The notes under the pieces: generated by a model
Database searches by the model: none
What the model was told of the DNA's origin: nothing
Seen by the model: only the letters and a program-made list of their open reading frames with translations
Assembly: GCA_965205015.1 (NCBI GenBank)
Contig: OZ242029.1
Coordinates: 800,001 to 864,000 of the forward strand
Length of the DNA stretch: 64,000 bases
Direction of reading: 5' to 3'
From: Candidatus Poribacteria bacterium
GTDB taxonomy: Bacteria > Poribacteria > WGA-4E > WGA-3G
Part shown: in pieces, positions 14,530-45,824 of the stretch
Layout: the number at the start of each line of letters is the position of its first letter
Numbering within the stretch: position 1 is the stretch's first letter
Program-made: the position numbers and the translations under genes

Positions 14530-15936
14530 CTAAATTTCAATGCGTACAAATGCCAGGAACGCTCCGGAGAAAAAAACAACGAAAAATAGCGTTAACAACA
14601 GCAAATTCATCGCCGCTGTGTTGAAATCACGACCAAAGTTGCGTGTGTCTTCAAATTTGGGAACTGCTTCTGGATTGACGGGTTTCTGCGATACCCCCTC
14701 GCGAACACCAATGATATGAAGACTCTCCGGATCCGCTCTATCGGTATCAACAATGAATTCGCGAAATTGTTGAGCGTAGGATTGAACATTCTCTAAGAAT
14801 TGCAGGTGTCGCTCAAAACCGGTTCCAGCGAACGACTCAAGGAGATGCTCCACAATTGTGACAGGTGAAAGACGGGTGATGGTGCGCGCCCGGTTCACTT
14901 GAGAAATCCGCCGTTTTAAGTGTTCTTCGCGCAAGCGTTCCCGCTGTTCTGCGTCTTGGGTAACATACTCGCCTGACAATTGTAATTTTTTTCTTTCATC
15001 TTCGCGGACTTCATGCCAATGAGTGTCGAATTCCTCCCTACGTTCCCAAAATCCAAGACTCGTCCTGAACGATGAAGAGCGTCCCTCGGATGAAGAGTGC
15101 CCGGCGATCGAAGCAAGTGTACTGGGCATAAAAACAACAAGCGTGACCCAAGCTAACAGAAGTATCACAAGGCTTACTGCGCTCCGTTGCACACGCGCCG
15201 ATACCAATAAACCTAATGCAAGAAAAAGACAGGTGTACAGGAGCGCAATAAAGTAGATGACACCTAAACGTCCCCACGCATCTGCGCTAAGGTAAACATC
15301 ACTTGACATAGAGATTACCAACAGATTCACCAACACGGCAAGCGTAAATGGAATACTCATGCTTACCAACGCCCCTAAAAATTTGCCAATCAGCACAGTG
15401 TGCCGCGGAATCGCATTTGCCAACATTAATCGCAATGTACCCTGTTCACGTTCATTGGAGATGGAATCGAAGGTGAACAGGAGCGCGAGGAGACTTAAGA
15501 CATAGCCGATGATAAAACCCCAGTCCACTTTGGTAACCTCTGGGTCTAGGTTGTCCCGATTGGGGGTGGCAGATGGATATCCGAGTGTCCATAAGCCCTC
15601 TAAGCCACGTTCCTGCCAACTCCAGCTCTGAAAACTACTGACATGTGCGGACAAAAACGCTTCACCGCGCGCTGCGCAGAAGTGGAGGGGGGATGGTTTT
15701 TTGTGAAGATCCCCAGGTCCCTTTTGTGCGAGTGTATAGAAACTTGCGTTGGCATGAGACTTTAAACGGTTTTGATGTGCAGCGACATTCTCGCTATACT
15801 TCTGAACCCGCTCTGGATGCTCTCGGAGATGCAGAACGGCATTGGTCAGCATCAAACCCAAGAGCAGGACTGTTGCAAGCGCGAATCGGAGGCTATTGAG
15901 ATTATCATAGAGTTCGCGTTTTACGATATGCCACAT
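14530..15936 (-). CDS. ABC-2 type permease (type B, WHIVKREL)
   Basis: FTFDSISNEREQGTLRLMLAN..R..VLIGKF; multiple TMs. Confidence 0.88.
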   Translation of the reverse strand: MWHIVKRELYDNLNSLRFALATVLLLGLMLTNAVLHLREHPERVQKYSENVAAHQNRLKSHANASFYTLAQKGPGDLHKKPSPLHFCAARGEAFLSAHVSSFQSWSWQERGLEGLWTLGYPSATPNRDNLDPEVTKVDWGFIIGYVLSLLALLFTFDSISNEREQGTLRLMLANAIPRHTVLIGKFLGALVSMSIPFTLAVLVNLLVISMSSDVYLSADAWGRLGVIYFIALLYTCLFLALGLLVSARVQRSAVSLVILLLAWVTLVVFMPSTLASIAGHSSSEGRSSSFRTSLGFWERREEFDTHWHEVREDERKKLQLSGEYVTQDAEQRERLREEHLKRRISQVNRARTITRLSPVTIVEHLLESFAGTGFERHLQFLENVQSYAQQFREFIVDTDRADPESLHIIGVREGVSQKPVNPEAVPKFEDTRNFGRDFNTAAMNLLLLTLFFVVFFSGAFLAFVRIEI

Positions 15937-15940
15937 TTTT

Positions 15941-16064
15941 GGGTTCTCGGTCTTCGGTTTTCGGAGGAAAGGGTTATCGGTATGCCTCGCAGTGAGAGTT
16001 CCAAGAGGGATTTGTTAAACGAAAACCTCTTACTGACCACCGACAACTGACCACCGATAACCAC
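15941..16064. repeat. Heptamer-based inverted repeat element
   Basis: ggttctc/ggtcttc/ggttttc ... ctgaccaccgacaactgaccaccgataacc. Confidence 0.55.
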
Positions 16065-16065
16065 T

Positions 16066-17577
16066 TTACACTTCACTTTTGACGAAAATCAGAAATATCA
16101 GGATGAAAATAACGACATTCATCATGAGCAAGATGCCTACATCCGGCAAGGCTCGCTTAGCATTTGTGTTCACATTGCCCCTTTGAAAAGCAAATTCTGG
16201 AAGAATGCTCCAATCCGCTGCGCCCTGGTCTGAGGAGAACCACTGTCGAGATCCAAATGCCTCTTTATCGTAGAGAGCGTCGATCACTTCCTGTCTGTAT
16301 CGTCTCGCTGCGTCGAAGAAATCTCTGACACCGTGCAAGTCAGTATCGGTCCATGCTTGTGTTGCAGCATCATACAGCCCCACGGGTGAAAGTTTCAAAT
16401 AGAGTCGCTTCACATTTGCCGGGTGAATGAAGATATCCTCCAGCGCAGGTTTTCGGACAAGCCAGGTCTGGTCGGCCGTACGGATAATCAGCGAACCGAG
16501 GAAACGGAAATGACTCTGGGCGTGAGGTATCTTGTGTTCCTCTTTCTCATCAAACCCTTCAAACGCCAAGATACCTTCAAAGGAGTATTTTAGCGTCCGG
16601 GGGTCACCCCAGAAGTAAGCGTAAGGGTTGGATCCACTGCCTCTTAATCCAAGATTCCAATCTATTCCTGGGAAAGCGTCGGTAGCGAGGAAATGCCTCC
16701 GTTCTCTCTCAAATTCTCCTTCCCACATCTGTTTAATTTGACTAAAAGCGGAGGCAGCACGCGCCTGCGGTGCTTCAGAGCGGGGGATCACAGCAAGAAT
16801 CGTATTCGGATAGATGAGGACTAAAAACCCCCAAACGAACATCGAGAGCATCAATGCAGTACTCGTTCGACACGTCGCCGCCGAAATCAGCAGTCCGATG
16901 AGGTAAAACACTGACAGATACGCAACGGATGCCAAAAGAATCCCGCCGATCCGTAAAAAATCATCGGTGTTTAGAGAAATGGAAGGGGTCGTCGTCAGCA
17001 AGATGACGGCGAGGAGAAGGCTTATTAGCAATGGCACGAGTAGGCAGATCATCGCACTGATGTATTTGGCAAGCAGGACATGCCCGCGACGGACGTGCGA
17101 CATCAAGACGAGACGTAATGTGCCACGCTCGTATTCTCCCGCGAGGGTATCGTAGGCGAAAATCAATGCCAATAAGCTCAGGATCACCTCAAAGATAAAA
17201 ACAATATCCATGGAAGCAAACATATCCATAAACGGATTATCCGCCCCATGCATTCCGGCATCCCACAGCGATGGAACATACGTATGTGATACCTGTACCT
17301 GGTTTCCAACCCGTTTATCGTATCCAGCATTGAAAATGCTCAATGGATTGGGGGGACGGTCGATACGCACTTCACCTGCTGAATAGGTTTTTTTCGCCTG
17401 CATCTGTCGCTGATGCGTTTTGACAGCGTCGTTGTAGTCCATCAATCGCTGTTCATAATCCTTAAGAAGCACAGCAGTATTGGCGACAACAAGCAACAAC
17501 GTAATAAAGACAGCTGCAGCGAAGCGGAACGTCATCAGGTTGTCGAGGAGTTCTCGGCGGATAAGCGTTGTTAACAT
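16066..17577 (-). CDS. ABC-2 type permease (type A, MLTTLIRREL)
   Basis: RPPNPLSIF, FAYDTLAGEYERGTLRL, LLAKY. Confidence 0.88.
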   Translation of the reverse strand: MLTTLIRRELLDNLMTFRFAAAVFITLLLVVANTAVLLKDYEQRLMDYNDAVKTHQRQMQAKKTYSAGEVRIDRPPNPLSIFNAGYDKRVGNQVQVSHTYVPSLWDAGMHGADNPFMDMFASMDIVFIFEVILSLLALIFAYDTLAGEYERGTLRLVLMSHVRRGHVLLAKYISAMICLLVPLLISLLLAVILLTTTPSISLNTDDFLRIGGILLASVAYLSVFYLIGLLISAATCRTSTALMLSMFVWGFLVLIYPNTILAVIPRSEAPQARAASAFSQIKQMWEGEFERERRHFLATDAFPGIDWNLGLRGSGSNPYAYFWGDPRTLKYSFEGILAFEGFDEKEEHKIPHAQSHFRFLGSLIIRTADQTWLVRKPALEDIFIHPANVKRLYLKLSPVGLYDAATQAWTDTDLHGVRDFFDAARRYRQEVIDALYDKEAFGSRQWFSSDQGAADWSILPEFAFQRGNVNTNAKRALPDVGILLMMNVVIFILIFLIFVKSEV

Positions 17578-17614: not shown

Positions 17615-19333
17615 CTACTTCTGCCCGAGAACCTTCAGAAACTCTGGGTCATCCTTTACATCCGAAAATTCCGGAGTTTTAAGGAAAGACGGGTAGTAGC
17701 TATCCATATAATTGTAGGAACTAACTATATAATCGCTCTGAGCGATCTTCAAATGGTGTAAAGTCTTCTCTCGGTTTTTCTCAGATGCCCAGACGCTCAC
17801 AGCAAGCATGAAGTGATTATAATCGTTGTAATTTCCCAAATCGATGGCGAGTTGTAGCAAACGTTTCGCTTCATCATACCTCTTCGCCCATACCAGACAA
17901 CAACCGATATTATGAGCAGTACAAACAAGCTCATAGATATTTACGGGATAACCGGCACTCCGTTTTTCGACTTCTCCTTCAATAAACGTCCTTGTATCCA
18001 TCAAGACTCGATCGAAACGATCCCAATCTCCCTGTTTGCTATACACCCGAAGTCGATTCTCTCTTATCGCCAACCAGAATCGAAAATAACTCCGCCAACC
18101 CGGTTCGCCATTGGCACGTTCCAACTTTTCTATCTCAAGAAGTGCCGCATCTAACCTATCGTTCCTTATTAAGATATCTGATCCAAATTGCAGAAAATCG
18201 CAACGACTGTACTGACTCACTTCAGGGTTCTCTAAGCGTTCAGATGCCTCATTGTAAAGTTGAATCCAGTCATCAATACGGCCTTCCGCCGCCCAACATC
18301 CAGCAGTGTTCGGATTAGAAACAATCCGCAACACATATTTTTCTGAGTGCTTGCATGCCCAACGGTAAAGACGCGTCTGTTCCTCAATAGCTTCTTGATT
18401 TCTCCGAAGAAAAGCGAGGCTTTTGACTAACCTGTCATGTGCCCAGGAACGCTCCGTATCATCTGGAGTGTCATCCATATACTTCCGGAGTAGAGGGAGC
18501 CGTTTTTCCATGCCGAGACTGCCCATATACGGGTATATCTTATCAACCACAAGACGCACCAATTCAGGCGTAATTTCACCCTTAAGTGCATCTTCAATCT
18601 CGTTGGCGGCTTCCTTAAGAATATCCTCCCTTGATGCAGGGTCAGATTTCACTTTTTCCATGAATGCATCGAATTTGCTGCGAAGTTGCTCTAATTGATT
18701 CATAATATTCTCCTCCAGATTATCTGATAACGGTAAATGACCAAAGAATTCTTGATCCAAGAGTTCCGGATCTGTTTGTAAACGTTTTCGCGCCCGGTGG
18801 AGCCGACTCGCAATTGTGTTTACCGGCACGCCCAAAAATTTGCCGATCTCTTTCGTCGGCATTTCGTCAAGATAGTAGAGTGTTACGACCGTGCGTTCAT
18901 TTTCTGGCAGTTTTTCTAAAAGCTGTTGGACAAGATCACGGCAATACTCTGTTCTCTCCGTCATCCGCTGTTCTGACATGTGGTGTGTATAAGAGGATTC
19001 CTCAATTTCTTCCAAACGTGTGCCTTCCAAAGATTGCATCGCAGGCTTGTGCTTCTGTATCCTCTTTTGCTTTCGCATCCAATCAATGCAAAGCCGATTG
19101 GCGATGACATAGAGCCACCCAGCAAATTGATCGGGATTTTTAAGCGTCGAGAGTTTTTTGTATGCCTGAAGGAAGACTTCTTGCATAATATCCTCAGCGT
19201 AGTGATAATCGCCGATCTTCCGCCATACAAGGGTATGAACGCTCTTTCGGTACCTTTCGACCAAGATGCCAAACGCAGCGTCGTCCCCGGATAAAATTTT
19301 GCGAATCAGTTGAACATCGCTTTCTTTTTCCAC
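17615..19333 (-). CDS. ECF sigma-70 factor fused to TPR-like domain (paralog of 12516-14216)
   Basis: Regions 2 and 4 intact; GTG 19333 with SD GGAGG preferred over ATG 19411. Confidence 0.9.
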   Translation of the reverse strand: MEKESDVQLIRKILSGDDAAFGILVERYRKSVHTLVWRKIGDYHYAEDIMQEVFLQAYKKLSTLKNPDQFAGWLYVIANRLCIDWMRKQKRIQKHKPAMQSLEGTRLEEIEESSYTHHMSEQRMTERTEYCRDLVQQLLEKLPENERTVVTLYYLDEMPTKEIGKFLGVPVNTIASRLHRARKRLQTDPELLDQEFFGHLPLSDNLEENIMNQLEQLRSKFDAFMEKVKSDPASREDILKEAANEIEDALKGEITPELVRLVVDKIYPYMGSLGMEKRLPLLRKYMDDTPDDTERSWAHDRLVKSLAFLRRNQEAIEEQTRLYRWACKHSEKYVLRIVSNPNTAGCWAAEGRIDDWIQLYNEASERLENPEVSQYSRCDFLQFGSDILIRNDRLDAALLEIEKLERANGEPGWRSYFRFWLAIRENRLRVYSKQGDWDRFDRVLMDTRTFIEGEVEKRSAGYPVNIYELVCTAHNIGCCLVWAKRYDEAKRLLQLAIDLGNYNDYNHFMLAVSVWASEKNREKTLHHLKIAQSDYIVSSYNYMDSYYPSFLKTPEFSDVKDDPEFLKVLGQK

Positions 19334-19451
19334 GAAATTTCCTCCGAATAAATAGATTGGACCCTGTATACCCTCGCCAAAGCGTTTAATCAAATACCAA
19401 GTTTTATGCAATTAAGCAATATGAGGTAGTTTACACCTTCTATATATTAAA

Positions 19452-27037: not shown

Positions 27038-28489
27038 CTATACCTCCGAACGCAGGAAGACGAGGAAGGCTCCTGAAAGCGACACACCGAGCAGTAAAAT
27101 GAGTAACAGAATATCGACTATAGCGGGATTGAGCGTCTCCTGAAAAGACAACTTATCCTCAAACATTGGGATAGTCTCTGGTAAGACGGACCTTTCCGAC
27201 ATGCCTTTCCGGACACCCACGAAATGAAGGCTCTCTGGATCCGCCCGATCCATTTCAACGATGAAATTTCGGAAGTGTCGGATATGAAGGCGGCAGTGTT
27301 CTAAGAATTGCAAATGCCGATTAAAGCCTGTGCCTGCCATGGATTCAAGGGCATATTGGACAACCGCTGCAGGAGAGCATCGGGTTATCTGTCTTGCATG
27401 CAGGACTTGCGCACTTTGCGCAGCGAGATGCTGGCGACTCAGCCGCTCCCGAATCTCCATGTCTTTGTTAACGAACGCCTGTTGGATCTCCAATTCTGAA
27501 GTGTCTACCCCCGCAACTTCCTCCTGAGAGGTTTCTGCGGATTGACGGCGTTCTCTTAAAGTCTCCCTTTTATCCAGGAAATCGCTCCGAATTTGGTCGA
27601 AGGCGGTCCCCTTTGTCCTCTGAAATTGATGGTGCGTTTGAATCGGAGGCATCCATCTTGTGGAGAGTGTGCCGAGGGTTGACGGCATAAACACCACGAC
27701 AGTCACCCAGATGAGCAACAGGACAACCAGACTTAACCGACTTTCCCGAGTCATCGCCGAGATAATAAGCCCAATTGCGACGAAGATACCAGCATAGCAA
27801 GAAGCAATCAGCACGATCAGTCCTAAACGCCCCCAGTCTGCGCCGCTGAGCTGCGTCCAACTCTCGGTAGAAATGATGGCGAGATTGAATAACACGGCAC
27901 AATAGAAGGCAATGAGGACCGTGATGAGGGAGCCAAGGAACTTACCCATTAATAGAGTCGGGCGCGAAATCGAATTGGCAAGACACAGCCGCAGCGTCCC
28001 GCGTTCTCGTTCTCCGGAGAGCGCGTCAAAGGTAAACAGGAGCGGCATGAAAGAGAGCAGATAGGTCACAATAAAGACCCAATCGATCCCCGTGGCAGTG
28101 GGACGAAGATTGCTAATCGCCTCCATATTCAGACGTGGAACGCCCATCGACCAAATATAGGCAAGCCCGTATAACCGCCAGAAACCACCACTCACGCTTT
28201 CGTCCGGTAGTAAGGCGTCCCCGCCATCGGCGATGAAGGCGAGCGATGCGGGGCGTTTGTAAAGCTTACCGGGTCCCTTGTGTAGCAGTTCATACAACTG
28301 CGTTCGGGATTTCAATTCGGTCTGAGATGCGTTAACCTTCTCGGAATACTTTCGAACCCGTTCCGGATGGGTTCGAAGATGCACAACGGCATTGGTTACC
28401 ATTAATGCTACGAGGATGAACGTGGTTAAGGCAAAGCGGAGACTCGTGAGGTGGTCTAAAAGTTCGCGTCTGACAACATGCCAAATCAT
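27038..28489 (-). CDS. ABC-2 type permease (type B)
   Basis: WHVVRREL, FTFDALSGERERGTLRL; paralog of 14530-15936. Confidence 0.88.
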   Translation of the reverse strand: MIWHVVRRELLDHLTSLRFALTTFILVALMVTNAVVHLRTHPERVRKYSEKVNASQTELKSRTQLYELLHKGPGKLYKRPASLAFIADGGDALLPDESVSGGFWRLYGLAYIWSMGVPRLNMEAISNLRPTATGIDWVFIVTYLLSFMPLLFTFDALSGERERGTLRLCLANSISRPTLLMGKFLGSLITVLIAFYCAVLFNLAIISTESWTQLSGADWGRLGLIVLIASCYAGIFVAIGLIISAMTRESRLSLVVLLLIWVTVVVFMPSTLGTLSTRWMPPIQTHHQFQRTKGTAFDQIRSDFLDKRETLRERRQSAETSQEEVAGVDTSELEIQQAFVNKDMEIRERLSRQHLAAQSAQVLHARQITRCSPAAVVQYALESMAGTGFNRHLQFLEHCRLHIRHFRNFIVEMDRADPESLHFVGVRKGMSERSVLPETIPMFEDKLSFQETLNPAIVDILLLILLLGVSLSGAFLVFLRSEV

Positions 28490-28638
28490 TTATTAGTTCT
28501 CGATTATCAGTTTTCAGTTAAGAAGCCATCGGTTAGTTTCATATCATTTCTAAAAATAAGTATTGCATACGCGATTTTTCTGAAGGGATACACAGCGGAT
28601 TTTAACTTAAGCAAAACACCTATTAACTGACAACTATT

Positions 28639-30201
28639 CTACACTTCAACTTTGATAAAAATCAAAAATGTCGCCATGAACAGGACGATATTGGTGCATA
28701 ACAGCAAAAACAGTTCAGGTAGGGCGCGATGCGCGTTGATGCCGATTTCTGCTCGCTCGAAGTGAAAACGAGGGAGGACCGACCAGTCTATATCCGCTTG
28801 ATTTGGAGCAAACCACTGCAGGCTCGCGAACGCATCTCTCTCATGAAAGGTCCCAATGAGGGTGCGGCGGTACGCCTGCGCGGTTTGAATATAATCCACC
28901 ATGCTGTTTAAATCGGTGCCTGCCCATGCGGCGGTAGCAAACGTATAAAGGCTTGCCGGACTGAACTTCATGAGACGCTCATCCCATTGTGCTTGATGGA
29001 GGGTGGTCTGTGCTACCAACTGCTGGCCGACGAAACCGACTTCGTCGGCATTCCGGATGTGCAGGGAGGCGGCGAATGCATAATAACGGCGTAAGTGTGG
29101 CACTAAAGGGTGCGCTGTATCTTTCAGTTCAAGGTTAACCCGAGGGAAGTCCCCAAGGAAGAAATATCCTGCTCCACTAAAGAGACCTGAAAACGCTTCA
29201 GAATCTGAAAATATCGGAGACTCCCCCTTAAGCGGACTATTGGCTAAGAACCGGTGTCGTTCTCTATCCGCCGCTTCCCGAATCTGCGCTATCTGCTGCT
29301 CGGTGGATCTTTTTTTTCCACGCATGTCCGCGTCTGGATTCAAGGCAAAGCGGCTCCAATTTGGATAGACGAGCACTAAAATCACCCATAAGAACATACA
29401 GAGCATCAAGGAGGTAGCGGCACGACGGGCTATCGCGGAAACGAGCAGACCGATCAGATAGAAAACCGACAGATAGACGATTGTCATTAAAACAATGCCG
29501 CCAATTCGTAGAAAATCACTTCCACTGAATTGCAAGGAACGCGCGAAGGAACACTGAATCAGGGCAAGCAATAGACTCATCAACACGGGGAGTAGCAGGC
29601 AAACCATCGCCGCAATATATTTAGCAAACAGCACATTTCCTCGCCCGACGGGATGTGAGAGCACCAAACGCAAGGTCCCTGTCTCCCAATCTCCCGCAAT
29701 CGCGTCATAAGCGAAAAGCAGAGCGATCAGACTCAACACAACCTGAAAGATAAAGACCAGGTCTATCTGTGAAAAGAGATACAGATAGGGGTTATTTATC
29801 CCGAGCGGTGCCCCTGGACTTGAGAGGGACGGGACGCTGCCAGACACCCACTGTTCTTCCTCGGGTCTGACATCAACGATGGGATTTGAGAGGGCTGGCA
29901 CACTGTCAAACGCTATATCAAGCTCACTGCCAAAACGCGTTTCCAAGCCCGCGCTAAAGAGGCTCAGGGGGTTCGGAGGACGCTGAACCTTTAACTTTAA
30001 GACCGAATAGGTGGGGGTTGCCTCGACCTTCTCGCGATTTACCGCTTCTTTCTGACTATAGTCGGCGAGACGCTCTTCATGTGCACCGATTAAGACGAAC
30101 GTATTGGCAACGACAAGTAAGAGTGTAATGACCACCGCAGCAAAAAAACGCGCACTCATCAGATGAATCAAGAGTTCCTGGCGTATCAGGGTCCGTAACA
30201 T
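28639..30201 (-). CDS. ABC-2 type permease (type A)
   Basis: MLRTLIRQEL, RPPNPLSLF, FAYDAIAGDWETGTLRL; paralog of 16066-17577. Confidence 0.88.
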   Translation of the reverse strand: MLRTLIRQELLIHLMSARFFAAVVITLLLVVANTFVLIGAHEERLADYSQKEAVNREKVEATPTYSVLKLKVQRPPNPLSLFSAGLETRFGSELDIAFDSVPALSNPIVDVRPEEEQWVSGSVPSLSSPGAPLGINNPYLYLFSQIDLVFIFQVVLSLIALLFAYDAIAGDWETGTLRLVLSHPVGRGNVLFAKYIAAMVCLLLPVLMSLLLALIQCSFARSLQFSGSDFLRIGGIVLMTIVYLSVFYLIGLLVSAIARRAATSLMLCMFLWVILVLVYPNWSRFALNPDADMRGKKRSTEQQIAQIREAADRERHRFLANSPLKGESPIFSDSEAFSGLFSGAGYFFLGDFPRVNLELKDTAHPLVPHLRRYYAFAASLHIRNADEVGFVGQQLVAQTTLHQAQWDERLMKFSPASLYTFATAAWAGTDLNSMVDYIQTAQAYRRTLIGTFHERDAFASLQWFAPNQADIDWSVLPRFHFERAEIGINAHRALPELFLLLCTNIVLFMATFLIFIKVEV

Positions 30202-30266
30202 CGTTTTCCGTTGCCTCAATTCCACGGGTTCTACTACCGAATTAGATATTTTCCAGGGATAGGTGA

Positions 30267-32042
30267 TTAGGACTTCAAGAGCATCGGCATGATGAGGTGG
30301 ATATGTCCTTCCTCACCAACCGGCTTAACAATCACAGGATCCAACGCGCTCGAGAACTCCAATGCCAAAGACGCCGTTCCAATGTGCGTGAGCGCCTCTA
30401 TCAGCATCCGAGCATCGAGACCGACACGGATACTTCCAGTGCTGGACACCACTGCTAAGGTTTCCTGCTGCTCATCTATCTCAGAATCCCTCGGCGAAAT
30501 CCGAATCCGTTGTTCATCTATCTCTAAACAGACCGTCGGCGAAATCCGAATCTGTTGTTCATCTATCTCTAAACAGAGAGCAGGGCATTTCGGATCCGAA
30601 AATGCTGAAACCTGACGTGTTGCACGCAAAATCGGCGCTTTCTGCACAACTGTACGCATCTGAGGAGACTTTGGAAAGAGTTTCTCATACTTCGGATATT
30701 CACCGTCTACCAACTGCGCCGTCAACGTGGTTCGCTCATCCGCGAAAAGAATCTGGTTCGCAACGCGTGAAACCCGTACCTCCAAGGAATCAGCAAACGT
30801 TCGTTCAATATCTTTGACGGCTTTGAGCGGGACGATAAACCCATCGTTATCCTCAGACAACCTTAAGGGTTCACACCGTGCGATGGCAATCTGCTTGCCG
30901 TCGCATCCAACGACTTCGGTCCTGTCCTCAAGCAGGTTAAAATAGAGCCCGTTTAGAAAAGTCCGCCGGACTTTCTCCGTGGACGCAGCACATTCGGTTT
31001 TGTGGAGGATCGACCGCAGGATCTCTCCATCAATCGCAAATGCTCCCGGGTCAACAGAAGGGAGTTGTGGAAATTCCTCATCCGCAAGCCCGACGATTTT
31101 GTAAACGTCATCTCCAGAAGTGATTCTAACCCGACCGTCCGCTGTCTTTGTCACGTCTATCGGTTTCTCCGCGGGCCACGCTTTAACGATATCCCCTAAT
31201 TTTTGGGCGGGGACAGTGATCGCTCCCGCTTCTTTGACTGTCCCTTCAACCTTCATTCTGATGCCAATTTCCGTGTCCATCGCCATGCATTCAATCGTGC
31301 TTCCTTCCGCACGGATGAGAACGTTTGAGGGAATAGGTGAGGTATCCTGCCCACTCGTGACACGCTGCAGCATTTGTAAAGAAGTTAAAAGCGCATCCCT
31401 TTCAAAAGTTAATTTCATTCCAAAACCCCTATTCAAATATATTTGGGCGCGACGTTCGGGTTCAATTGTGAGGTCTAAGGCTTCCTGAATCATGAATTCA
31501 TACTGCTTTAACTGTTGTCGCGCACGTCGAAGCCGACTTTTAATCGTGTTTTCTGACACACCTAAAAAGTTACTTATTTCTGTGTAGGTCATCCCCTCAA
31601 GGTAGTGAAGCGTGATAGTTGTCCGATTGCTCTCCTTCAACCTCGCGAGCAGCTTTTCGACCACGTCGCGCCGCGCTTCAGCGAAGGTCCTCGCGTGTTC
31701 TGTCGCGATATACTGGGAATACGCCTCTGTCTCTACTTCAGAGATGTCAGTGTTTTCCAGCGGCTCAGTGTGCCGCTGGTTTTTTCGGAGCCAAGCGATA
31801 CAGAGACGATCCGCAATCACATAAACCCACCGTAGAAACCGCGTCGGATCTTCCAAGGTCTCTAATTTGTGATAGACTCGCAGGAAGGTTTCCTGCGTAA
31901 TATCTTCGGCGATATGGAAATCCCCAATTTTCCGCCATGCGAGCGCGTGAACCTGTTTCTGGTACTTTCTAACCAACCTTGAAAAGGCAGTTTCATCACC
32001 GGTGAGGACTCGTTGGATCAATGCAGCATCGTCGTTTCTCAT
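30267..32042 (-). CDS. ECF sigma-70 factor fused to DNA polymerase III beta clamp (DnaN)
   Basis: aa 1-190 sigma; aa 209-591 MKLTFERDALL, PAQKLGDIVK, ADEEFP, FLNGLYF, LVDGEYPKY, LIMPM. Confidence 0.9.
   Translation of the reverse strand: MRNDDAALIQRVLTGDETAFSRLVRKYQKQVHALAWRKIGDFHIAEDITQETFLRVYHKLETLEDPTRFLRWVYVIADRLCIAWLRKNQRHTEPLENTDISEVETEAYSQYIATEHARTFAEARRDVVEKLLARLKESNRTTITLHYLEGMTYTEISNFLGVSENTIKSRLRRARQQLKQYEFMIQEALDLTIEPERRAQIYLNRGFGMKLTFERDALLTSLQMLQRVTSGQDTSPIPSNVLIRAEGSTIECMAMDTEIGIRMKVEGTVKEAGAITVPAQKLGDIVKAWPAEKPIDVTKTADGRVRITSGDDVYKIVGLADEEFPQLPSVDPGAFAIDGEILRSILHKTECAASTEKVRRTFLNGLYFNLLEDRTEVVGCDGKQIAIARCEPLRLSEDNDGFIVPLKAVKDIERTFADSLEVRVSRVANQILFADERTTLTAQLVDGEYPKYEKLFPKSPQMRTVVQKAPILRATRQVSAFSDPKCPALCLEIDEQQIRISPTVCLEIDEQRIRISPRDSEIDEQQETLAVVSSTGSIRVGLDARMLIEALTHIGTASLALEFSSALDPVIVKPVGEEGHIHLIMPMLLKS
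30491..30580. repeat. 45-bp in-frame tandem duplication within the DnaN domain
   Basis: tcggcgaaatccgaatc(c/t)gttgttcatctatctctaaacaga x2; CLEIDEQxIRISP repeated. Confidence 0.9.
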
Positions 32043-32146
32043 TAGACATCTCCAAAAAGCTATTTTTATTCACGGAACTTATATAACTTATATAATATTA
32101 TACCAGAGGCGTTTTTCTCTTGAAACATCTATTTCTTATGAGGTCC

Positions 32147-33919
32147 TTACTGTTTTGGAGCGTCGGATGCCGCAAATTGTAAGTGGTACAACCGAGCATA
32201 GAGCCCGCCCTGCGCCAGCAACGCCTGATGCGTGCCTATTTCCACAATTTCGCCGTTCTCCATGGCAAGAATTACATCGGCATTTAGCACGGTAGACAAT
32301 CGGTGTGCGATCACAAACGAAGTCCTTCCCTCCATCAACCGCTCTAAGGCTTCCGTAACGACCCGTTCCGTCTCCGAGTCCAACGCGGAAGTGGCTTCAT
32401 CGAGCAGGAGAAGTTTCGGATTCCGAATCAGCACACGAGCGATAGCAATCCGTTGTCGTTCGCCACCGGAGAGCCGGATACCCCGTTCGCCTATCTCCGT
32501 GGCGTAGCCATCTGTGAGTTGCGTGATAAATCCGTGGGCGTTTGCGGCTGTAGCGGCGGCAATAATATCCTCTTTTCTCACGTCCTCTGGGTGTCGTGCA
32601 CCGATTCGGATGTTTTCCTCAATTGAACCCGAGAAGAGATAAGGGTCTTGAAACACTGTGCCGATCTGGGAGCGTAGGGCACTCAGATTGAGTGTCGCAA
32701 TATCGTGTTCATCAACACAAATCCGTCCGTGGGTAGGGGTGTAGAGACGTGGAATAAGGTTGAGAATCGTGCTTTTCCCTGCGCCGCTGGGTCCCACAAG
32801 TGCAGCGATTTGACCCGGCAACACCTCAAAACTGACGTTCTGCAGGACTTTCGAGGTTTCGTTATAACCGAAGTGGACAGCATCAAACCGGACCTGTCCC
32901 CGCAAATCAACATCCTCAATACCATCAGTCGGTTCGGTTCGGTTTTCATCCAAAAAGGTAAAAACCCGTTTTGCCCCCTCACCTGTCCTCAGAAGCGTTT
33001 GATATCCATTTTGGGCTTGGTATAGGGGAACGGTGAGTAGATTCAAATAACGATTTGCCATCCATAAAAACCCGAGACTGATGTGTCCATCAAGCACCAT
33101 TTTTCCACCGATAAAAAAGAAAAGCGGATTGCCCACCCAAGAAGCAAGGGCACCCAATGCTGTCAACCCTCCGATTAACTTTTGATGGACTTCTGCACGA
33201 ATGAGGGTCTCTATTGAACGTCGGATGAATCCCATATCTCTCATCTCATGTCCAAGGGATTTAATCTCCCGGGACCCCCCAATGCCTTCTTGGAGCCGTG
33301 ACGAAATACTTTCCCTTTCCTGTAAGACCTGCTTTGAAGCGTTTTGGACAGGCCTTCGGAAGAGAACCGGGAGACCGACCACAGCGAGGGTAAACGGAAT
33401 ACTAAACAGACCCAACCATGGACTCACCCAGAACACAACGGTCAGGGTAACAGCAAATTCAATTCCTGCAAGGATAATCCACCCGCTCGTCAAAATCCCC
33501 TCAGCGGCAGAGGCTGTATCGGAATCGATGTAAGCCATGATCTGCCCGGTTGTGTGGTCATCGTAAAAACGGCACGGTAAGAATCGCAGATGTTGGTAGA
33601 CCTGCAGTTGCATATCACGGCGGGTTTGACCTGTGACCTTTGCCAAAAAATACGCGAATCCAACCGATGTGAGATAAGTGACGGTCGCAATAGCCATCCA
33701 TGACCCAACAAGAATTGGCAGAAAATCGGCATCTTTCTCACCAATGACACGGTCAAAAAACTGTCCTTCCATCCATGGGAAGACCAGAAAGGTCGCGCGC
33801 ATGCCGCCTTGGAAGAGCAGACACAAAAGGGCTAACCCCCAATACGGTTTGAGGTAACCTAACAAACGGACAGCAATTCTGCCACTTCCCAAATTTCCCT
33901 TCTTTTTCGACGCATCCAA
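32147..33919 (-). CDS. ABC exporter, fused TMD+NBD (MsbA/MdlB-like)
   Basis: GPSGAGKS, LSGGERQ, LLDEATSALD, AHRLST. Confidence 0.93.
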   Translation of the reverse strand: MDASKKKGNLGSGRIAVRLLGYLKPYWGLALLCLLFQGGMRATFLVFPWMEGQFFDRVIGEKDADFLPILVGSWMAIATVTYLTSVGFAYFLAKVTGQTRRDMQLQVYQHLRFLPCRFYDDHTTGQIMAYIDSDTASAAEGILTSGWIILAGIEFAVTLTVVFWVSPWLGLFSIPFTLAVVGLPVLFRRPVQNASKQVLQERESISSRLQEGIGGSREIKSLGHEMRDMGFIRRSIETLIRAEVHQKLIGGLTALGALASWVGNPLFFFIGGKMVLDGHISLGFLWMANRYLNLLTVPLYQAQNGYQTLLRTGEGAKRVFTFLDENRTEPTDGIEDVDLRGQVRFDAVHFGYNETSKVLQNVSFEVLPGQIAALVGPSGAGKSTILNLIPRLYTPTHGRICVDEHDIATLNLSALRSQIGTVFQDPYLFSGSIEENIRIGARHPEDVRKEDIIAAATAANAHGFITQLTDGYATEIGERGIRLSGGERQRIAIARVLIRNPKLLLLDEATSALDSETERVVTEALERLMEGRTSFVIAHRLSTVLNADVILAMENGEIVEIGTHQALLAQGGLYARLYHLQFAASDAPKQ

Positions 33920-34029
33920 CCCCTTGTCTCCTCTAAACGTTAACGATCACTGTTATATATAGTACTCTCCCCTTCGGAAGGTTACAAATTGTGAAGAGAT
34001 ACCCTATCAATTTACTCCATCACTATAGT

Positions 34030-34057
34030 GACGCGAACTGAGAAAAAAAAGGGTGCA
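34030..34057 (-). promoter_or_regulatory. Putative ECF promoter, motif A variant
   Basis: TGCAC-N19-CGTC upstream of the ABC / sigma-DnaN unit. Confidence 0.45.
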
Positions 34058-34114
34058 TAATTCTGCAAAAAAGCGAGAAAGTCACTAAAAAAGCAAAAAT
34101 TACGTTTTTGGAGT

Positions 34115-36079: not shown

Positions 36080-37033
36080 TCAATCAGTTTCTTCGGATGT
36101 AGGTTTCTCTACAGCGTCCGCATTCAAGTATTTCAGTGGACTCTCAACAATATAATCCCCCGAATCCTCAAGGAACTGCTGCACCAGAAAGATATGTCCG
36201 GCACCCATCATCAACAGAATGCGATCATCGGCAGATTCGGTGATCCGCGTTATATTCACGAAAATCTTGAGATTTCTATCATACCAAATATGGACAAGCC
36301 AATTCACCGCCGGATATTCGTCCCCCAATCCAACACGCGCATCATGTAAATATGCTCGCTGGCTTGCCCGGCTCCATGTCGGCTGATTCAGACGTATAAG
36401 CATGTCAGTTATTGGCTCATATTTCTCCGGTTCAATCCAGACTGTACCATCCTCATCCACTATAACTTTTCCTGGATCTACGGGATGGGATCCGAGGAGG
36501 TGCTCCTGATTATGTTTTTTGGCAAAGTCAATTGTGTTTATCAAATTACTATCAATACCACCTCTAAAGATTGGATTGTCTTTACTGCTTCGGAAATAAT
36601 CCACACAGTATATCTTTGAATGTCCCAGTTGTTTTGCTAACCGAAAGCCAATCTGGTGCCCTTCGTTACGTCTCAGTTGAAATATTCCCTCCAGATAACC
36701 TTGGTAATCTGAATTAATTTCAGCATCCCGTGAGAAATCCACTTCCATTGCTATCTTGGTAGGACTAAACGCCTTGAGTTGTTCGATTAACTGCTGAATC
36801 TCGCGTTGGCGTTTGGGGGCAAGGACATCATCCATTTTGAGATTGATGCCATCCATTCCGGGATTCGATAAGTGTGCAGTACCGAGAATCATGATTGTGG
36901 GTTTTTGGGTCATTTGCGTAGTACCTCCTGTAGACAAGTCTGTCTGATCATTGCTTATGGCTGTACCGACTGTAAGCAATAAAGCGACGAATGACATCAT
37001 CAAATAGAATTGGCATTTTACTAAGACTTTCAT
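36080..37033 (-). CDS. DUF5694-like (TIKI/TraB/EreA-ChaN superfamily) hydrolase with signal peptide
   Basis: ILGTAH, IAME, WYDRN, GAGH; ORF extends in frame to 37171 through a sigma remnant. Confidence 0.8.
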   Translation of the reverse strand: MKVLVKCQFYLMMSFVALLLTVGTAISNDQTDLSTGGTTQMTQKPTIMILGTAHLSNPGMDGINLKMDDVLAPKRQREIQQLIEQLKAFSPTKIAMEVDFSRDAEINSDYQGYLEGIFQLRRNEGHQIGFRLAKQLGHSKIYCVDYFRSSKDNPIFRGGIDSNLINTIDFAKKHNQEHLLGSHPVDPGKVIVDEDGTVWIEPEKYEPITDMLIRLNQPTWSRASQRAYLHDARVGLGDEYPAVNWLVHIWYDRNLKIFVNITRITESADDRILLMMGAGHIFLVQQFLEDSGDYIVESPLKYLNADAVEKPTSEETD

Positions 37034-37071
37034 AAAACTTTTTCCTATTTTCCGCTGTGCGGTTGATTCGA

Positions 37072-37171
37072 TTATATCCTCCACATCTTCCCGATTTCCG
37101 AGTAGATAGAGGATGTGCTGATAAACCTGAACTTTGTGTTGATAGATAAGCTCAAATTTATCTTCTGTCAT
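37072..37171 (-). pseudogene. N-terminal remnant of duplicated ECF sigma gene
   Basis: MTEDKFELIYQHKVQVYQHILYLLGNREDVEDI matches the start of 48656-49201; DNA 37072-37236 homologous to 49099-49266. Confidence 0.85.
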
Positions 37172-43348: not shown

Positions 43349-44143
43349 TCATTGTGTTTCTTCCGCACTTAAGTAGTCTAACGGGCTCTCAACGATATAA
43401 TCCCCCGAATCCTCAAGAAACTGTTGGACGAGGAAAACATGTCCAGCACCGATAATCAGTAGAATGCGATCGTCAGCAGATTCGGTGATACGGGTTAAAT
43501 TCACAAATATTTTGAGATTCCGAGCATACCAAATATGGGCAAGCCAATCTGCACCCGGATATTTGTCGTCTAACCCAATACGTGCATCATGTAAGTATGC
43601 CCGCTGGCTCGCACGGCTCCATGCAGGCTGATTGAGGCGGATATACATGTCGATTATCGGTTCATATTCCTCAGGTTCAATCCAGCCTGTCCCGTCCTCA
43701 TCCTGTGTAACTTTTTCCGGAGATCCGGGATGGGATCCAAAGAGGTGCCTCTGATTGTGTTTTTTCGCAAACTCGCTGCGGTTTATCAAATGACCTTTCA
43801 TGCTTTCAAAGATCGGATCTTGCTTTGGCCAATAATCAACGCAATACACTTTTGAATGTCTCACCATTTTCGCCAATCGAAACCCGACTTGATGGATTTC
43901 ATGGCGTTCAAGTTGAAATTCATCCTTCAGATAGGCATTGTATTCCTGCTGAAGATTGGAGTCAAGGTAGTCGACCTCAACAGCTATCTTCGTCGGCTGA
44001 AATTGAGCCAGTTGATCAGCAAGTTGTTGAAGTTCGCGCTGACGTTTAGGCGCGCGCATATCATCTATATTATCTCCATCCCAACCTGCCAAGTGGTGAC
44101 TCCCGAGAATCATAACTGTAGGTTTCGTCTGATGTTTCATCAA
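43349..44143 (-). CDS. DUF5694-like hydrolase, no signal peptide
   Basis: ILGSHH, IAVE, WYARN, GAGH. Confidence 0.8.
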   Translation of the reverse strand: MMKHQTKPTVMILGSHHLAGWDGDNIDDMRAPKRQRELQQLADQLAQFQPTKIAVEVDYLDSNLQQEYNAYLKDEFQLERHEIHQVGFRLAKMVRHSKVYCVDYWPKQDPIFESMKGHLINRSEFAKKHNQRHLFGSHPGSPEKVTQDEDGTGWIEPEEYEPIIDMYIRLNQPAWSRASQRAYLHDARIGLDDKYPGADWLAHIWYARNLKIFVNLTRITESADDRILLIIGAGHVFLVQQFLEDSGDYIVESPLDYLSAEETQ

Positions 44144-44955
44144 TTAGCATCCTCCATTTTTAAGTATTGCAGCGGACTTTCGACAATGTAATCGCCTGAA
44201 TCCTCAAGAAACTGTTGGACGAGGAAGACATGCCCAGCACCGATAATCAGTAGAATACGATCGTCAGCAGATTCGGTGATACGCGTCAGGTTAATGCAGA
44301 TTTTGAGGTTCCGAGCGTACCAACTATGGGCAACCCAATTCGCACCCGGATATTGGTCCCCTAATCCAATACGCGCACTGCGTAGATACGCCTGATGATC
44401 CGCGAGTCTACCTTCAGGCTCGTTGAGACGTATGTACATCTCAATTATAGGTTCGTATTTCTCAGGTTCAATCCAAGTTGTGCCATCTTTGTCCTGAGTG
44501 ATTTTTCCTTCTATAGGTGGGGGACGTAGGAAATGCTTCTGATTATGAGTCTCTGCGAACTTATAGCGATCCATCAAATCCCAATCAATCTTACTCTCAG
44601 GAAGACGGGGGGACCGTTCCGTCCAAAAATAATCCACACAGTGTACCTTCGGATGTCCGATCTGCTTTGCCAATCGAAACGCAATCTGATGGATTTCATG
44701 GCGTTCAAGTTGGAAGTTATCCTTCAGATACGCATTATACTCCGCTTGCTTTTCAGCGTCCCAACGTGTGTCGGATTCAATGGCTATCTTCGTCGGTTTG
44801 AAGCGCGCAAGTTGTTCAACGAGTTGCTGAATCTCGGCTTGGCGCTTTGGTGTGAGGACATCATCCATTTTTGTATTGTATACATCCGCTCCCCAGTTTG
44901 CCAAGTGCGGACTGCCGAGAATCATGATTGTCGGTTTCGTCTGATGTTTCATCAA
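44140..44955 (-). CDS. DUF5694-like hydrolase, no signal peptide
   Basis: ILGSPH, IAIE, WYARN, GAGH; ATGA coupling. Confidence 0.8.
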   Translation of the reverse strand: MMKHQTKPTIMILGSPHLANWGADVYNTKMDDVLTPKRQAEIQQLVEQLARFKPTKIAIESDTRWDAEKQAEYNAYLKDNFQLERHEIHQIAFRLAKQIGHPKVHCVDYFWTERSPRLPESKIDWDLMDRYKFAETHNQKHFLRPPPIEGKITQDKDGTTWIEPEKYEPIIEMYIRLNEPEGRLADHQAYLRSARIGLGDQYPGANWVAHSWYARNLKICINLTRITESADDRILLIIGAGHVFLVQQFLEDSGDYIVESPLQYLKMEDAN

Positions 44956-45824
44956 TCAGCATCCTCCGCCTTTAGGTATTTGAGTGGATTCTCAACGATG
45001 TAATCCCCGGAATCTTCAAGGAATTGTTGGACGAGGAAGACATGCCCGACACCGATAATCAGCAGAATGCGATCGTCAGCAGATTCGGTGATACGGGTTA
45101 AATTTACAAAGATTTTGAGGTTCCGAGCATACCAAATATGGGCAAGCCAATCCGCACCCGGATATTTGTCGCCTAACCCAATACGTGCATCATGTAAGTA
45201 TGCTCGCTGGCTCGCGCGGGTCCTTACGGGCTGATTGAAGCGTATGTACTTGTCAATTATCGGTTCATATTTCTCAAGTTTTCCTGGATCTGTAGGATCT
45301 CCGAAACGGTGATCCTCAGGAGATCCGAGAAGGTATTCCTGATTGTGAACTTTTGCAAACTCGCTGCGGTTTATCAAATGCCCTTTAATGCTTTCAAAGA
45401 TCGGATCTCGTTTGGGCCAATAATCAACACAATACATCTTTGAATGTCCGAACTCTTTTGCTAACCTATATCCAATCTGATCTCCCTCATAGGGTCCGAG
45501 TGCGTAGGTCCCGTTTAAATAACCTTGATAGCGTTTGTTTTCAGCGTCGCAACGGCTTGGATCCAACTCAACCGCTATCTTGGTAGGTTTAAATCCTTTG
45601 AGGTGTTCAACCACCTGTTCAATCTCGCGTTGGCGTTTGGTCGCGAGGACATCATCCGAAAAGTGCCAACTGCCAAGAATCATAATCGTCGGTTTTTTCG
45701 TCATGTGCGTAGTATCCTCTGTAGACGGGTCTGTCCGGTCATCACTTGCGACTGTGCCGACCGCAAGTAACACAGCGACGAATAACATTATCAAATAGAA
45801 CTCGTATTTCACTAAGGCTTTCAT
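44952..45824 (-). CDS. DUF5694-like hydrolase with signal peptide
   Basis: Hydrophobic N-terminus, ILGSWH, IAVE, WYARN, GVGH. Confidence 0.8.
   Translation of the reverse strand: MKALVKYEFYLIMLFVAVLLAVGTVASDDRTDPSTEDTTHMTKKPTIMILGSWHFSDDVLATKRQREIEQVVEHLKGFKPTKIAVELDPSRCDAENKRYQGYLNGTYALGPYEGDQIGYRLAKEFGHSKMYCVDYWPKRDPIFESIKGHLINRSEFAKVHNQEYLLGSPEDHRFGDPTDPGKLEKYEPIIDKYIRFNQPVRTRASQRAYLHDARIGLGDKYPGADWLAHIWYARNLKIFVNLTRITESADDRILLIIGVGHVFLVQQFLEDSGDYIVENPLKYLKAEDAD

Follow-up and report, generated by a model that had tools for sequence, protein, structure and literature searches.

An extracytoplasmic function sigma factor fused to a complete, diverged DnaN sliding clamp in Candidatus Poribacteria

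Is the open frame that joins a sigma factor to the beta clamp DnaN in a Candidatus Poribacteria genome a genuine gene, and if so, what would a sliding clamp do at the end of a sigma factor? The sigma-DnaN gene lies on the minus strand of a 64,000-nucleotide stretch (positions 800,001 to 864,000 of contig OZ242029.1, assembly GCA_965205015.1; hereafter the window), and the coordinates of its parts are collected in Table 1. A reading made from the sequence alone had described a three-domain clamp of 383 amino acids (aa) following sigma region 4 and had singled out two strings within it, GCDGKQIA and a C-terminal LIMPMLLKS. Both strings are present in the translation, the former at residues 379-386, and Pfam and NCBIfam models agree with the domain assignment. 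The clamp part (residues 209-591) matches TIGR00663 (dnan, NCBIfam) over residues 209-587, corresponding to model positions 1-365 of 367, with 193.8 bits against a cut-off of 137.65, and PF00712, PF02767 and PF02768 all exceed their own gathering scores. The N-terminal half scores 100.2 bits with TIGR02937 (sigma70-ECF, NCBIfam; cut-off 42.9) and is likewise above the cut-off for PF07638; only regions 2 and 4 are present, which places it with the extracytoplasmic function (ECF, group 4) sigma factors. Taken together, the gene encodes an ECF sigma factor with a functional-looking sigma half, a flexible linker and a complete beta-clamp paralogue.

Structure prediction is in line with this architecture. 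An AlphaFold2 model was built from a 127-row alignment of fusions, stand-alone clamps and sigma modules; it superseded a poor model from a 37-row alignment (predicted local distance difference test score, pLDDT, 52.5; predicted template modelling score, pTM, 0.27). In the 127-row model (mean pLDDT 79), confidence is high for the two sigma domains and for the clamp, whose blocks lie mostly at pLDDT 75-94 and are predicted to adopt the three-domain clamp fold. When compared with solved beta clamps in the PDB by Foldseek, the modelled clamp gave template modelling scores of 0.88-0.91 (target-normalised) and E values of about 1e-29. The pLDDT falls below 50 in the loop between sigma regions 2 and 4 (residues 89-108) and in the sigma-clamp linker (191-207), and residues 497-509, which belong to a duplication considered below, form a low-confidence loop. 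Because the linker is below 50 and the pTM of the whole chain is 0.59, the model suggests that sigma and clamp are separate bodies on a flexible tether, with no fixed docking between them. A two-copy complex prediction of clamp residues 206-591 scored 0.00 against a mark of 0.42; it was run without controls and speaks neither for nor against dimerisation.

The fusion is widespread in the phylum. All of the best 120 matches listed by a word-indexed search of 5.8 billion proteins (69-94% identity) contain both the sigma and the DnaN Pfam families; most are 576 aa long, and one is named Candidatus Poribacteria. At least 137 homologues have the sigma-DnaN architecture in an intact reading frame, some of them on complete long chromosomes. 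GTDB species genomes yielded 16 full-length and three truncated loci, all from Poribacteria metagenome-assembled genomes (MAGs), several of which are complete chromosomes. Among 150 sampled Poribacteria genomes, at least 44 contain a full-length fusion and four of these have two copies, where full-length means a match from query residue 1 or 2 to at least residue 587 at 59% identity or more; these counts are lower bounds. No fusion from outside Poribacteria occurred among the best 150 of 1.84 billion cluster representatives, where the fusions were one full-length cluster (P0045) and some truncated or fragmentary ones, and a search of the ESM Atlas returned plain sigma-factor clusters only. A 1087-base contig from another study's sponge metagenome (run X4) crosses the sigma-clamp junction (30834-31920) with three differences. 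Since 120 of the 120 listed homologues have both halves and this independent contig spans the join, the junction is not an assembly artefact.

Purifying selection acts on both halves. Over all pairs with a synonymous distance (dS) below 1.5, pairwise dN/dS ranges from 0.06 to 0.27 in the sigma half and from 0.13 to 0.38 in the clamp half. An artefact, a pseudogene or the bacterium's own DnaN with a mis-called start might be read into a 45-bp tandem duplication in clamp domain III and into the low TIGR00663 scores of the window protein (193.8 bits) and of the fusions in relatives (197-241 bits), compared with 264-301 bits for stand-alone clamps. Against these stand the intact frames of 137 homologues, complete long chromosomes included, dN/dS ratios well under 1, the independent contig over the junction, and the canonical stand-alone DnaNs found alongside the fusion in five of five complete relatives, all of which contradict such explanations. 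The duplication itself is shared by three of the 137 family members: P0001, P0002 (94% identical) and P0007 (79% identical, with a similar one). It inserts 15 aa in the window protein, which accounts for the 576-aa length of most homologues. Contigs from run X4 end inside the 45-bp repeat, and one spans the junction of the copies with only 28 bases on its short side; they are consistent with the duplication, short of proof.

The distances of the two halves do not run in parallel. When the window and loci L006-L012 are compared pair by pair, the sigma half shows up to double the synonymous distance of the clamp half (1.40 and 0.57 for the window and L006), and non-synonymous distances are also discordant (0.275 for sigma and 0.138 for clamp between L007 and L011). 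This pattern suggests an exchange of sigma modules between paralogues.

How the fused clamp relates to the clamps of the replication machinery was addressed in five complete Poribacteria relatives. Together these contain 12 stand-alone DnaN open reading frames (ORFs) of about 366-372 aa (264-301 bits with TIGR00663), as well as six full-length fusions (open frames of 578-600 aa, 197-241 bits), two truncated ones and one weak fragment. Each complete genome has two or three stand-alone dnaN genes, some as tandem pairs (G001-G005, L077-L088). The fusion clamps share 51-60% identity with the stand-alone clamps of the five relatives and 41-45% with those of other Poribacteria MAGs. A quick IQ-TREE tree places 37 fusion clamps in a single clade (Shimodaira-Hasegawa-like approximate likelihood ratio support of 100, stem 0.26), which sits in an unresolved fork with two classes of stand-alone clamp from the same genomes. 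Class A, the best-scoring stand-alone class, reads ATDGKRLA ... LIMPMRLE; class B retains the interface and DNA-contact residues and varies in the cleft at the equivalents of G174, H175, R176 and M362. Judged by these comparisons, the fusion clamp is a non-replicative paralogue that arose by duplication of a Poribacteria dnaN. The sequence-only reading had likewise taken it for a non-replicative paralogue with an altered pocket, and the coexistence of canonical stand-alone DnaNs in the relatives bears this out. The usual linkage of dnaA and dnaN is missing from G001-G005: the single dnaA is not adjacent to any dnaN match and lies at least ~140 kb away from every one of them in all five genomes, so that linkage is useless as a marker of the housekeeping dnaN.

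To follow the divergence residue by residue, E. coli numbering was mapped onto the fusions through a P. aeruginosa alignment and a mutagenic primer printed in PMC3022782, and residues were tallied in 137 fusions and in ordinary clamps (41 overall; 23 stand-alone Poribacteria clamps). Passages of PMC3022782 confirm residues 362-366 as part of the clamp cleft, and passages of the same paper and of PMC12269063 describe the dimer-interface roles of R269, I272 and L273. Among 33 ordinary clamps, 54 columns reach a conservation of at least 90%; in 37 fusions, 27 of these columns still do, and class B stand-alone clamps retain nearly all of the 54. The positions that we take to form the other part of the cleft (T172, G174, H175, R176 and L177) read C/G/K/Q/I in the window protein and T/G/K/R/L in class A. 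At the T172 position, T in ordinary clamps, the fusions have C in 82, T in 33 and A in 20 of 137; the R176 position is Q in 131. The end of the cleft reads M/P/M/L/L in the window versus M/P/M/R/L in class A: M362, P363 and M364 are mostly kept (113, 131 and 116 of 137 fusions, respectively), and R365, an arginine in ordinary clamps and a leucine here, remains R in only eight of the 137. The relatives' stand-alone DnaNs keep ATDGKRLA and LIMPMRLE, so T172C, R176Q, L177I and R365L are specific to the fusion, and the lineage's housekeeping DnaN, as represented by these stand-alone clamps, does not have the same substitutions. H175K, which the sequence-only reading had counted among the pocket changes, is shared with the ordinary clamp of the lineage and has to be dropped from them.

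The dimer interface has changed as well. Whereas R/L/L occupies the R269, I272 and L273 positions in 23 of 23 stand-alone Poribacteria clamps, the window protein has Q/A/F. R269 is R in all 41 ordinary clamps; the fusions have Q (59), K (44), R (23) or D/E (11). The I272 equivalent is A in 48, L in 52, S in 19 and P in 17 fusions, and that of L273 is V in 52, F in 47, L in 15 and R in 12. On the domain-I edge strand, the F106 equivalent is Y in ordinary clamps and in the window protein; among the fusions it is Y in 91, H in 29 and R in 17. The canonical combination Y, R, L, L at the F106, R269, I272 and L273 equivalents was found in none of the 137. The replacements are matched to one another: A goes with F, L goes with V, and one subclade has R / D-or-E / x / R, a pattern that looks like re-specification rather than random decay. 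A heterodimer of the fusion with DnaN, suggested from the sequence alone, sits poorly with these tallies: the absence of the canonical set, with Y at the F106 equivalent, from all 137 fusions argues for insulation from DnaN and against mixing. On the residues compared, we conclude that the clamp is re-specified at its partner cleft, its dimer interface and its putative DNA-contact position.

The sigma half probably acts on the operon that encodes it. A rare bipartite ECF-type motif, CAGAATTATGCACC-N16-CGCGTCAC, lies before the ABC exporter gene that precedes the fusion, and CAGAATTATGCACC-N15/16-CGCGTCAC is found upstream of and co-oriented with the gene in 16 fusion loci; motif and fusion are separated by the exporter gene in the window and in L002-L004. 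A search of the five complete genomes with GAATTRTGYAC-N16-19-GCGTCAC gave 16 sites versus none for the reversed control. Six of these precede the six full-length fusion genes or operons, nine precede other sigma-module genes and one is unassigned; G001 has no site other than that at the fusion operon. In the fetched loci together with the window, 23 of 23 sites are co-oriented and 22 are upstream of sigma-X genes or operons (genes in which the same sigma module carries other extensions; see below), the remaining site, in L020, having no ORF assigned by the script. Related versions of the motif (CAGAATGCA[AC]G ... TTTCGTC) precede two other sigma fusions in the window. Motif spacing and the CGTC element fit ECF promoters, and we infer that the motif is recognised by this sigma factor, which would then have its own promoter upstream and be autoregulated. 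No anti-sigma domain was detected by Pfam in 10 neighbouring proteins, a scan that did not extend to small ORFs. An extended -10-like candidate nearer the gene was noted by eye and is missing from a consensus scan, which counted no more promoters and terminators than it did in shuffled sequence.

Contig depth rises several-fold over sigma region 2 (31833-31973) in all four sequencing runs compared, and several contigs link about 31961-31976 to about 34047, in the stretch 34020-34070. Such a rise and such joins are expected if paralogues or relatives have the promoter motif directly before the sigma gene, with no ABC exporter between.

Other fusions of a clamp were found in the phylum. A second full-length sigma-DnaN type (L105-L107, from G144, G058 and G117; 580-583 aa), 42% identical to the first, is built on another sigma module; its clamp, in which ATDGKRLA and R269 are retained, falls with stand-alone class A (FastTree support 0.99). 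With a different sigma module and a class A clamp, this type makes it appear, on sequence, that sigma-DnaN fusion arose independently twice. Truncated relatives also occur: a conserved form of 455-458 aa with a common ending joins the sigma factor to clamp domains I-II (L013, L015 and L016; 10001-11377), with no remnant of domain III downstream, and P0129 (469 aa) joins it to domains II-III. In P0125 (L109, 1498-3618, minus strand; L110, 1495-3576, minus strand; 693-706 aa), a complete DnaN is fused head-to-tail with a complete FtsZ, with about five residues between the clamp end MPMKL and the FtsZ start; this gene is intact in two of the 150 sampled genomes, and its clamp keeps R269 and the L/L interface and has R176Q. 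A 1429-aa open frame around DnaN in G070 proved to be read-through, the real gene being an ordinary 367-aa DnaN.

The gene order on the minus strand of the window is MacB-like permease, ABC exporter, sigma-DnaN, two ABC-2 permeases, sigma-FtsZ and a PD40/S9 peptidase. From MacB through to sigma-FtsZ, this order is conserved in L001-L004 except for the exporter, which L001 lacks, and a homologue of the first ABC-2 permease occurs in 13 of 19 fusion loci. The sigma-FtsZ protein matches FtsZ in the PDB with an E value of 1.6e-54 and has the GGGTG motif, and it is without the FtsZ C-terminal domain; orthologues 81-92% identical are found at the same position in L001-L005. Of six proteins tested with PADLOC, five matched no defence model, among them the fusion, sigma-FtsZ and the permeases, and the sixth gave a weak helix-turn-helix (HTH) hit.

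Sigma-DnaN and sigma-FtsZ belong to a larger family, termed sigma-X here. At least 135 ORFs in the window and the fetched loci have an N-terminus that shares 55-80% identity with the first ~190-200 residues of the fusion, and this sigma module opens more than 100 clusters at 50% identity; the first part of the linker is common to all of these paralogues. The extensions of the 135 ORFs fall into seven clusters, and those observed comprise a transmembrane (TM) segment with BNR/Sortilin-type repeats (~1000 aa), a winged-helix HTH_20 domain (~400 aa), DnaN, FtsZ, TPR/PPR-like repeats, PD40 with peptidase S9, and CarboxypepD_reg. A TM segment is predicted in 69 of the 135, nearly always at residues 217-245; in about half of the family it is single, with BNR/Sortilin-type repeats after it. 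Sigma-X genes often stand in tandem arrays of three or four, each of ~1000 aa (L024-L076 and the window). In the window, two sigma fusions with TPR/PPR-like extensions, which have no Pfam match and only weak PDB hits in the extension, each adjoin a second ABC-2/DUF3526 permease pair and each have their own ECF-like upstream motif. Since this second pair is flanked by sigma fusions, the window has two copies of a module made up of sigma-X, two permeases and sigma-X. Four paralogous DUF5694-type ORFs of 264-363 aa, matching the same genes in related loci, form a small gene-family array upstream of the transporter/sigma block.

Table 1. Features of the sigma-DnaN locus; positions are those of the window
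Feature	Position	Strand	Details
Sigma-DnaN gene, whole	30267..32042	-	591 codons plus stop at 30267-30269; no internal stop
Start ATG	32042-32040	-	GGAG at 32053-32050, 7 nt before ATG
Sigma region 2, residues 23-90	31773..31976	-	Sigma70_r2 PF04542, 54.3 bits; pLDDT 74-90
Sigma region 4, residues 127-180	31503..31664	-	Sigma70_r4_2 PF08281, 56 bits; Pfam span 127-178
Linker, residues 181-208 (~28 aa)	31419..31502	-	191-207 predicted disordered
Clamp domain I, residues 209-328	31059..31418	-	Pfam DnaN N-terminal domain; Q232 is the R24 equivalent
Clamp domain I edge strand, Y314 and I316	within 31059..31418	-	
Clamp domain II, residues 337-451	30690..31034	-	Pfam DnaN central domain
Clamp domain III, residues ~455-587	30282..30680	-	Pfam DnaN C-terminal domain at 503-587
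Cleft segment GCDGKQIA, residues 379-386	30885..30908	-	ATDGKRLA in stand-alone Poribacteria clamps
Dimer-interface residues Q477, A480, F481	30600..30614	-	Equivalents of E. coli R269, I272, L273
C-terminus LIMPMLLKS	30270..30296	-	MPM retained; R365 equivalent is L
45-bp tandem duplication	30491-30577		1.9 copies, 97% match; in-frame, +15 aa in clamp domain III
Bipartite ECF-type motif	34028..34065	-	Before the ABC exporter gene preceding the fusion
Extended -10-like promoter candidate	32097..32125	-	TTTCAA, 17 nt, TGG TATAAT; found by eye
ABC exporter, TM region and ATPase	32147..33919	-	First gene after the ECF-type motif
Two ABC-2 permeases with DUF3526 (27038..30225)	28639-30225, 27038-28489	-	Directly downstream of the fusion
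Sigma-FtsZ, 419 aa	25676..26935	-	ECF sigma (regions 2 and 4) plus FtsZ N-terminal GTPase; ~3 kb downstream
Two sigma + TPR/PPR-like fusions, 566 and 598 aa	12516-14216, 17615-19411	-	
Second ABC-2/DUF3526 permease pair	14530-17577		
Four DUF5694-type ORFs	36080-37171, 43349-45824	-	

What, then, might the clamp do? Besides a heterodimer, the sequence-only reading had proposed sliding of a sigma factor along DNA and a role as decoy or sensor. By analogy with the phage systems compared below, we favour, with a probability of roughly 40%, an autoregulated sigma factor tethered by its own re-specified and insulated clamp, like T4 gp55/gp45 and Mu MuC. The sigma factor would drive its own operon (the ABC exporter, sigma-DnaN, two ABC-2 permeases and sigma-FtsZ). 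Its clamp would have ceased to serve DNA polymerases; insulated from the housekeeping DnaN by its changed interface, it would pair with itself and provide a built-in DNA or replisome tether, and sigma activity would thereby be tied to the state of the DNA or of replication. In covalent and cellular form, such a protein would do what T4 gp45 does in holding gp55-RNA polymerase on DNA and what the host clamp does for MuC. A tether is favoured because none of the three clamp domains has been lost, the interface changes go together, sigma and clamp are joined by a flexible linker, the sigma cores do not co-vary with their extensions, and a sigma-clamp fusion has seemingly arisen twice. Several observations weigh against it. 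Position R24, presumably a DNA-contact and loading residue and R in ordinary clamps, is Q in 105 of the 137 fusions, the window protein included. The six channel-lining helices have a mean net charge of +1.9 in the fusions versus +3.2 to +5.6 in ordinary clamps (net +6, by hand count, in the window protein). The delta subunit of the clamp loader uses the cleft, so that loading of a clamp with an altered cleft is doubtful. The interface sets are inherited by whole subclades and may represent only a few events, and the truncated I-II and II-III relatives cannot close a ring. The comparison with housekeeping clamps rests on the stand-alone DnaNs of the five complete relatives and not on the window's own genome. 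In the metatranscriptome run X20, contigs fell on the ABC exporter and the permease start and none usefully covered the fusion; the exporter contigs are about 92% alike and therefore come from a relative. Finally, the occurrence of the same sigma module on sensor-like or membrane-anchored domains fits a generic regulatory extension equally well.

That last point leads to the main rival, which we consider possible and somewhat doubtful: a one-component ECF sigma factor in which the clamp fold, without encircling DNA, has been exapted as a sensor or anti-sigma-like module as in ECF41/ECF42, either holding the sigma factor inactive or activating it when the remodelled cleft binds some protein or ligand. 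The lack of an anti-sigma domain among the 10 neighbours scanned agrees with it, as extensions typically go with such a lack (passages of PMC7826278), and so do the TPR-like, winged-helix and TM plus BNR/Sortilin extensions on the same 55-80% identical module, the TM segments in about half of the ORFs, the off-consensus cleft, interface and R24 positions with 27 of 54 clamp-invariant columns lost, and the conserved truncated two-domain forms. A sensor of this kind is opposed by close sigma cores that bear unrelated extensions, the reverse of the co-clustering argument made in parts of PMC7826278, and by three clamp domains intact under purifying selection; the second fusion, with its different sigma factor and near-canonical clamp, suggests that a clamp-specific property is being used, and the missing confident sigma-clamp docking (linker pLDDT, whole-chain pTM) is weak evidence in the same direction. 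Improbable by comparison is a decoy or guard, in which the clamp and FtsZ copies would mimic targets of antibiotics, toxins or phage proteins, with binding freeing the sigma factor for the flanking ABC export genes. The surroundings would suit it (MacB-like permease, ABC exporter and two ABC-2 permeases, the first of them recurrent among fusion loci, with sigma-FtsZ in the same gene string), as would cleft positions that vary among close relatives, the extra stand-alone class B DnaNs with variable cleft residues, and natural products that bind the clamp cleft, to go by the titles of PDB 6pth and 8ciz. A decoy should resemble its target, yet this cleft differs from the ordinary one at R176, T172 and R365; five of the six proteins tested have no PADLOC defence-model match, the sixth giving only the weak HTH hit, and no biosynthetic genes were seen among the neighbours scanned. 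We give slightly less credence still to a partner of the housekeeping clamp that heterodimerises or docks at the replisome and so sequesters the sigma factor or delivers it to newly replicated DNA. Its domain-I edge strand keeps Y314 and I316, and E. coli tolerates a heterodimeric clamp with one working cleft (passages of PMC3022782); no fusion has left the domain-III side of the interface unaltered (the canonical set with R/L/L in none of 137), and the subclade with Arg at the F106 and L273 equivalents and an acidic R269 equivalent resembles insulation. Returning to the tether, its boldest extension, which we find unlikely, although less so than a decoy or a DnaN partner, is that Poribacteria have hard-wired clamp-activated transcription: a self-ring insulated by its rewired interface and cleft would ride DNA and couple an ECF regulon to replication, and would form, with sigma-FtsZ and DnaN-FtsZ, a lineage-specific network wiring the replication and division machines to transcription.

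Set beside known systems, the fusion shares with replicative DnaN the three-domain fold, a full-length model match above cut-off and the C-terminal MPM; it differs in being fused to a sigma factor, in the change of 27 of 54 invariant columns, and in the coexistence of canonical DnaNs in its relatives. In GriR-type self-resistance to clamp-targeting antibiotics, an extra copy of DnaN is a stand-alone, working clamp encoded in a biosynthetic cluster. The fusion resembles it as a second dnaN with an altered cleft besides the housekeeping gene; unlike GriR, it is joined to a sigma factor and has a changed dimer interface, and its scanned neighbours encode transporters, a peptidase and further sigma fusions. 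The case shows how an essential hub protein that works as an oligomer can be copied and given a new cleft and interface specificity for another role.

Among sigma factors, the known kind to which the protein belongs is the ECF sigma factor with a C-terminal extension, and the new part is a clamp as the extension. ECF classification 2.0 lists 19 groups with such extensions, including ECF41, ECF42 and ECF238, and the co-clustering of core and extension in known groups is used there to argue for specific core-extension contacts (sections of PMC7826278). Like these groups, the fusion has regions 2 and 4 only, a long domain after region 4, an autoregulation-type bipartite promoter, and no adjoining anti-sigma gene among the 10 neighbours scanned. 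Unlike them, its extension is a complete DnaN clamp, and unlike the ECF41/42 type, its sigma module carries at least seven unrelated extension clusters among 135 ORFs, and core and extension do not co-cluster. The main text of PMC7826278 makes no mention of a clamp, DnaN, polymerase III, FtsZ or Poribacteria, and a listing in its supplement is possible; literature searches found no sigma-clamp fusion. The family thus described is an unusually modular set of one-component sigma factors in uncultured sponge symbionts, within which the permanent union of a sigma factor with a clamp paralogue of its own is conserved across the phylum and apparently was invented twice.

The closest functional parallels come from phages. 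In T4 late transcription, the sigma-like factor gp55, gp33 and the clamp gp45 act together, the clamp tethering RNA polymerase and coupling transcription to replication (parts of PMC7892883), and Mu MuC requires the E. coli clamp for late transcription (parts of PMC12867686). Clamp-activated transcription is thus established for phages T4 and Mu; its cellular use is a question that the fusion would directly test, and the Mu paper suggests in one passage that such transcription may occur more widely than has been appreciated so far (PMC12867686). An intact, conserved fusion in a sponge-symbiont bacterium hints at a built-in link between the transcription and replication machineries. As in T4 and Mu, a promoter-specificity factor is physically coupled to a sliding clamp, whose loading onto DNA would follow here by analogy only. 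In the phages, the link is non-covalent, made through clamp-binding motifs to a working replication clamp, whereas in the fusion a peptide bond joins the sigma factor to a diverged paralogue dedicated to it, and the system is cellular.

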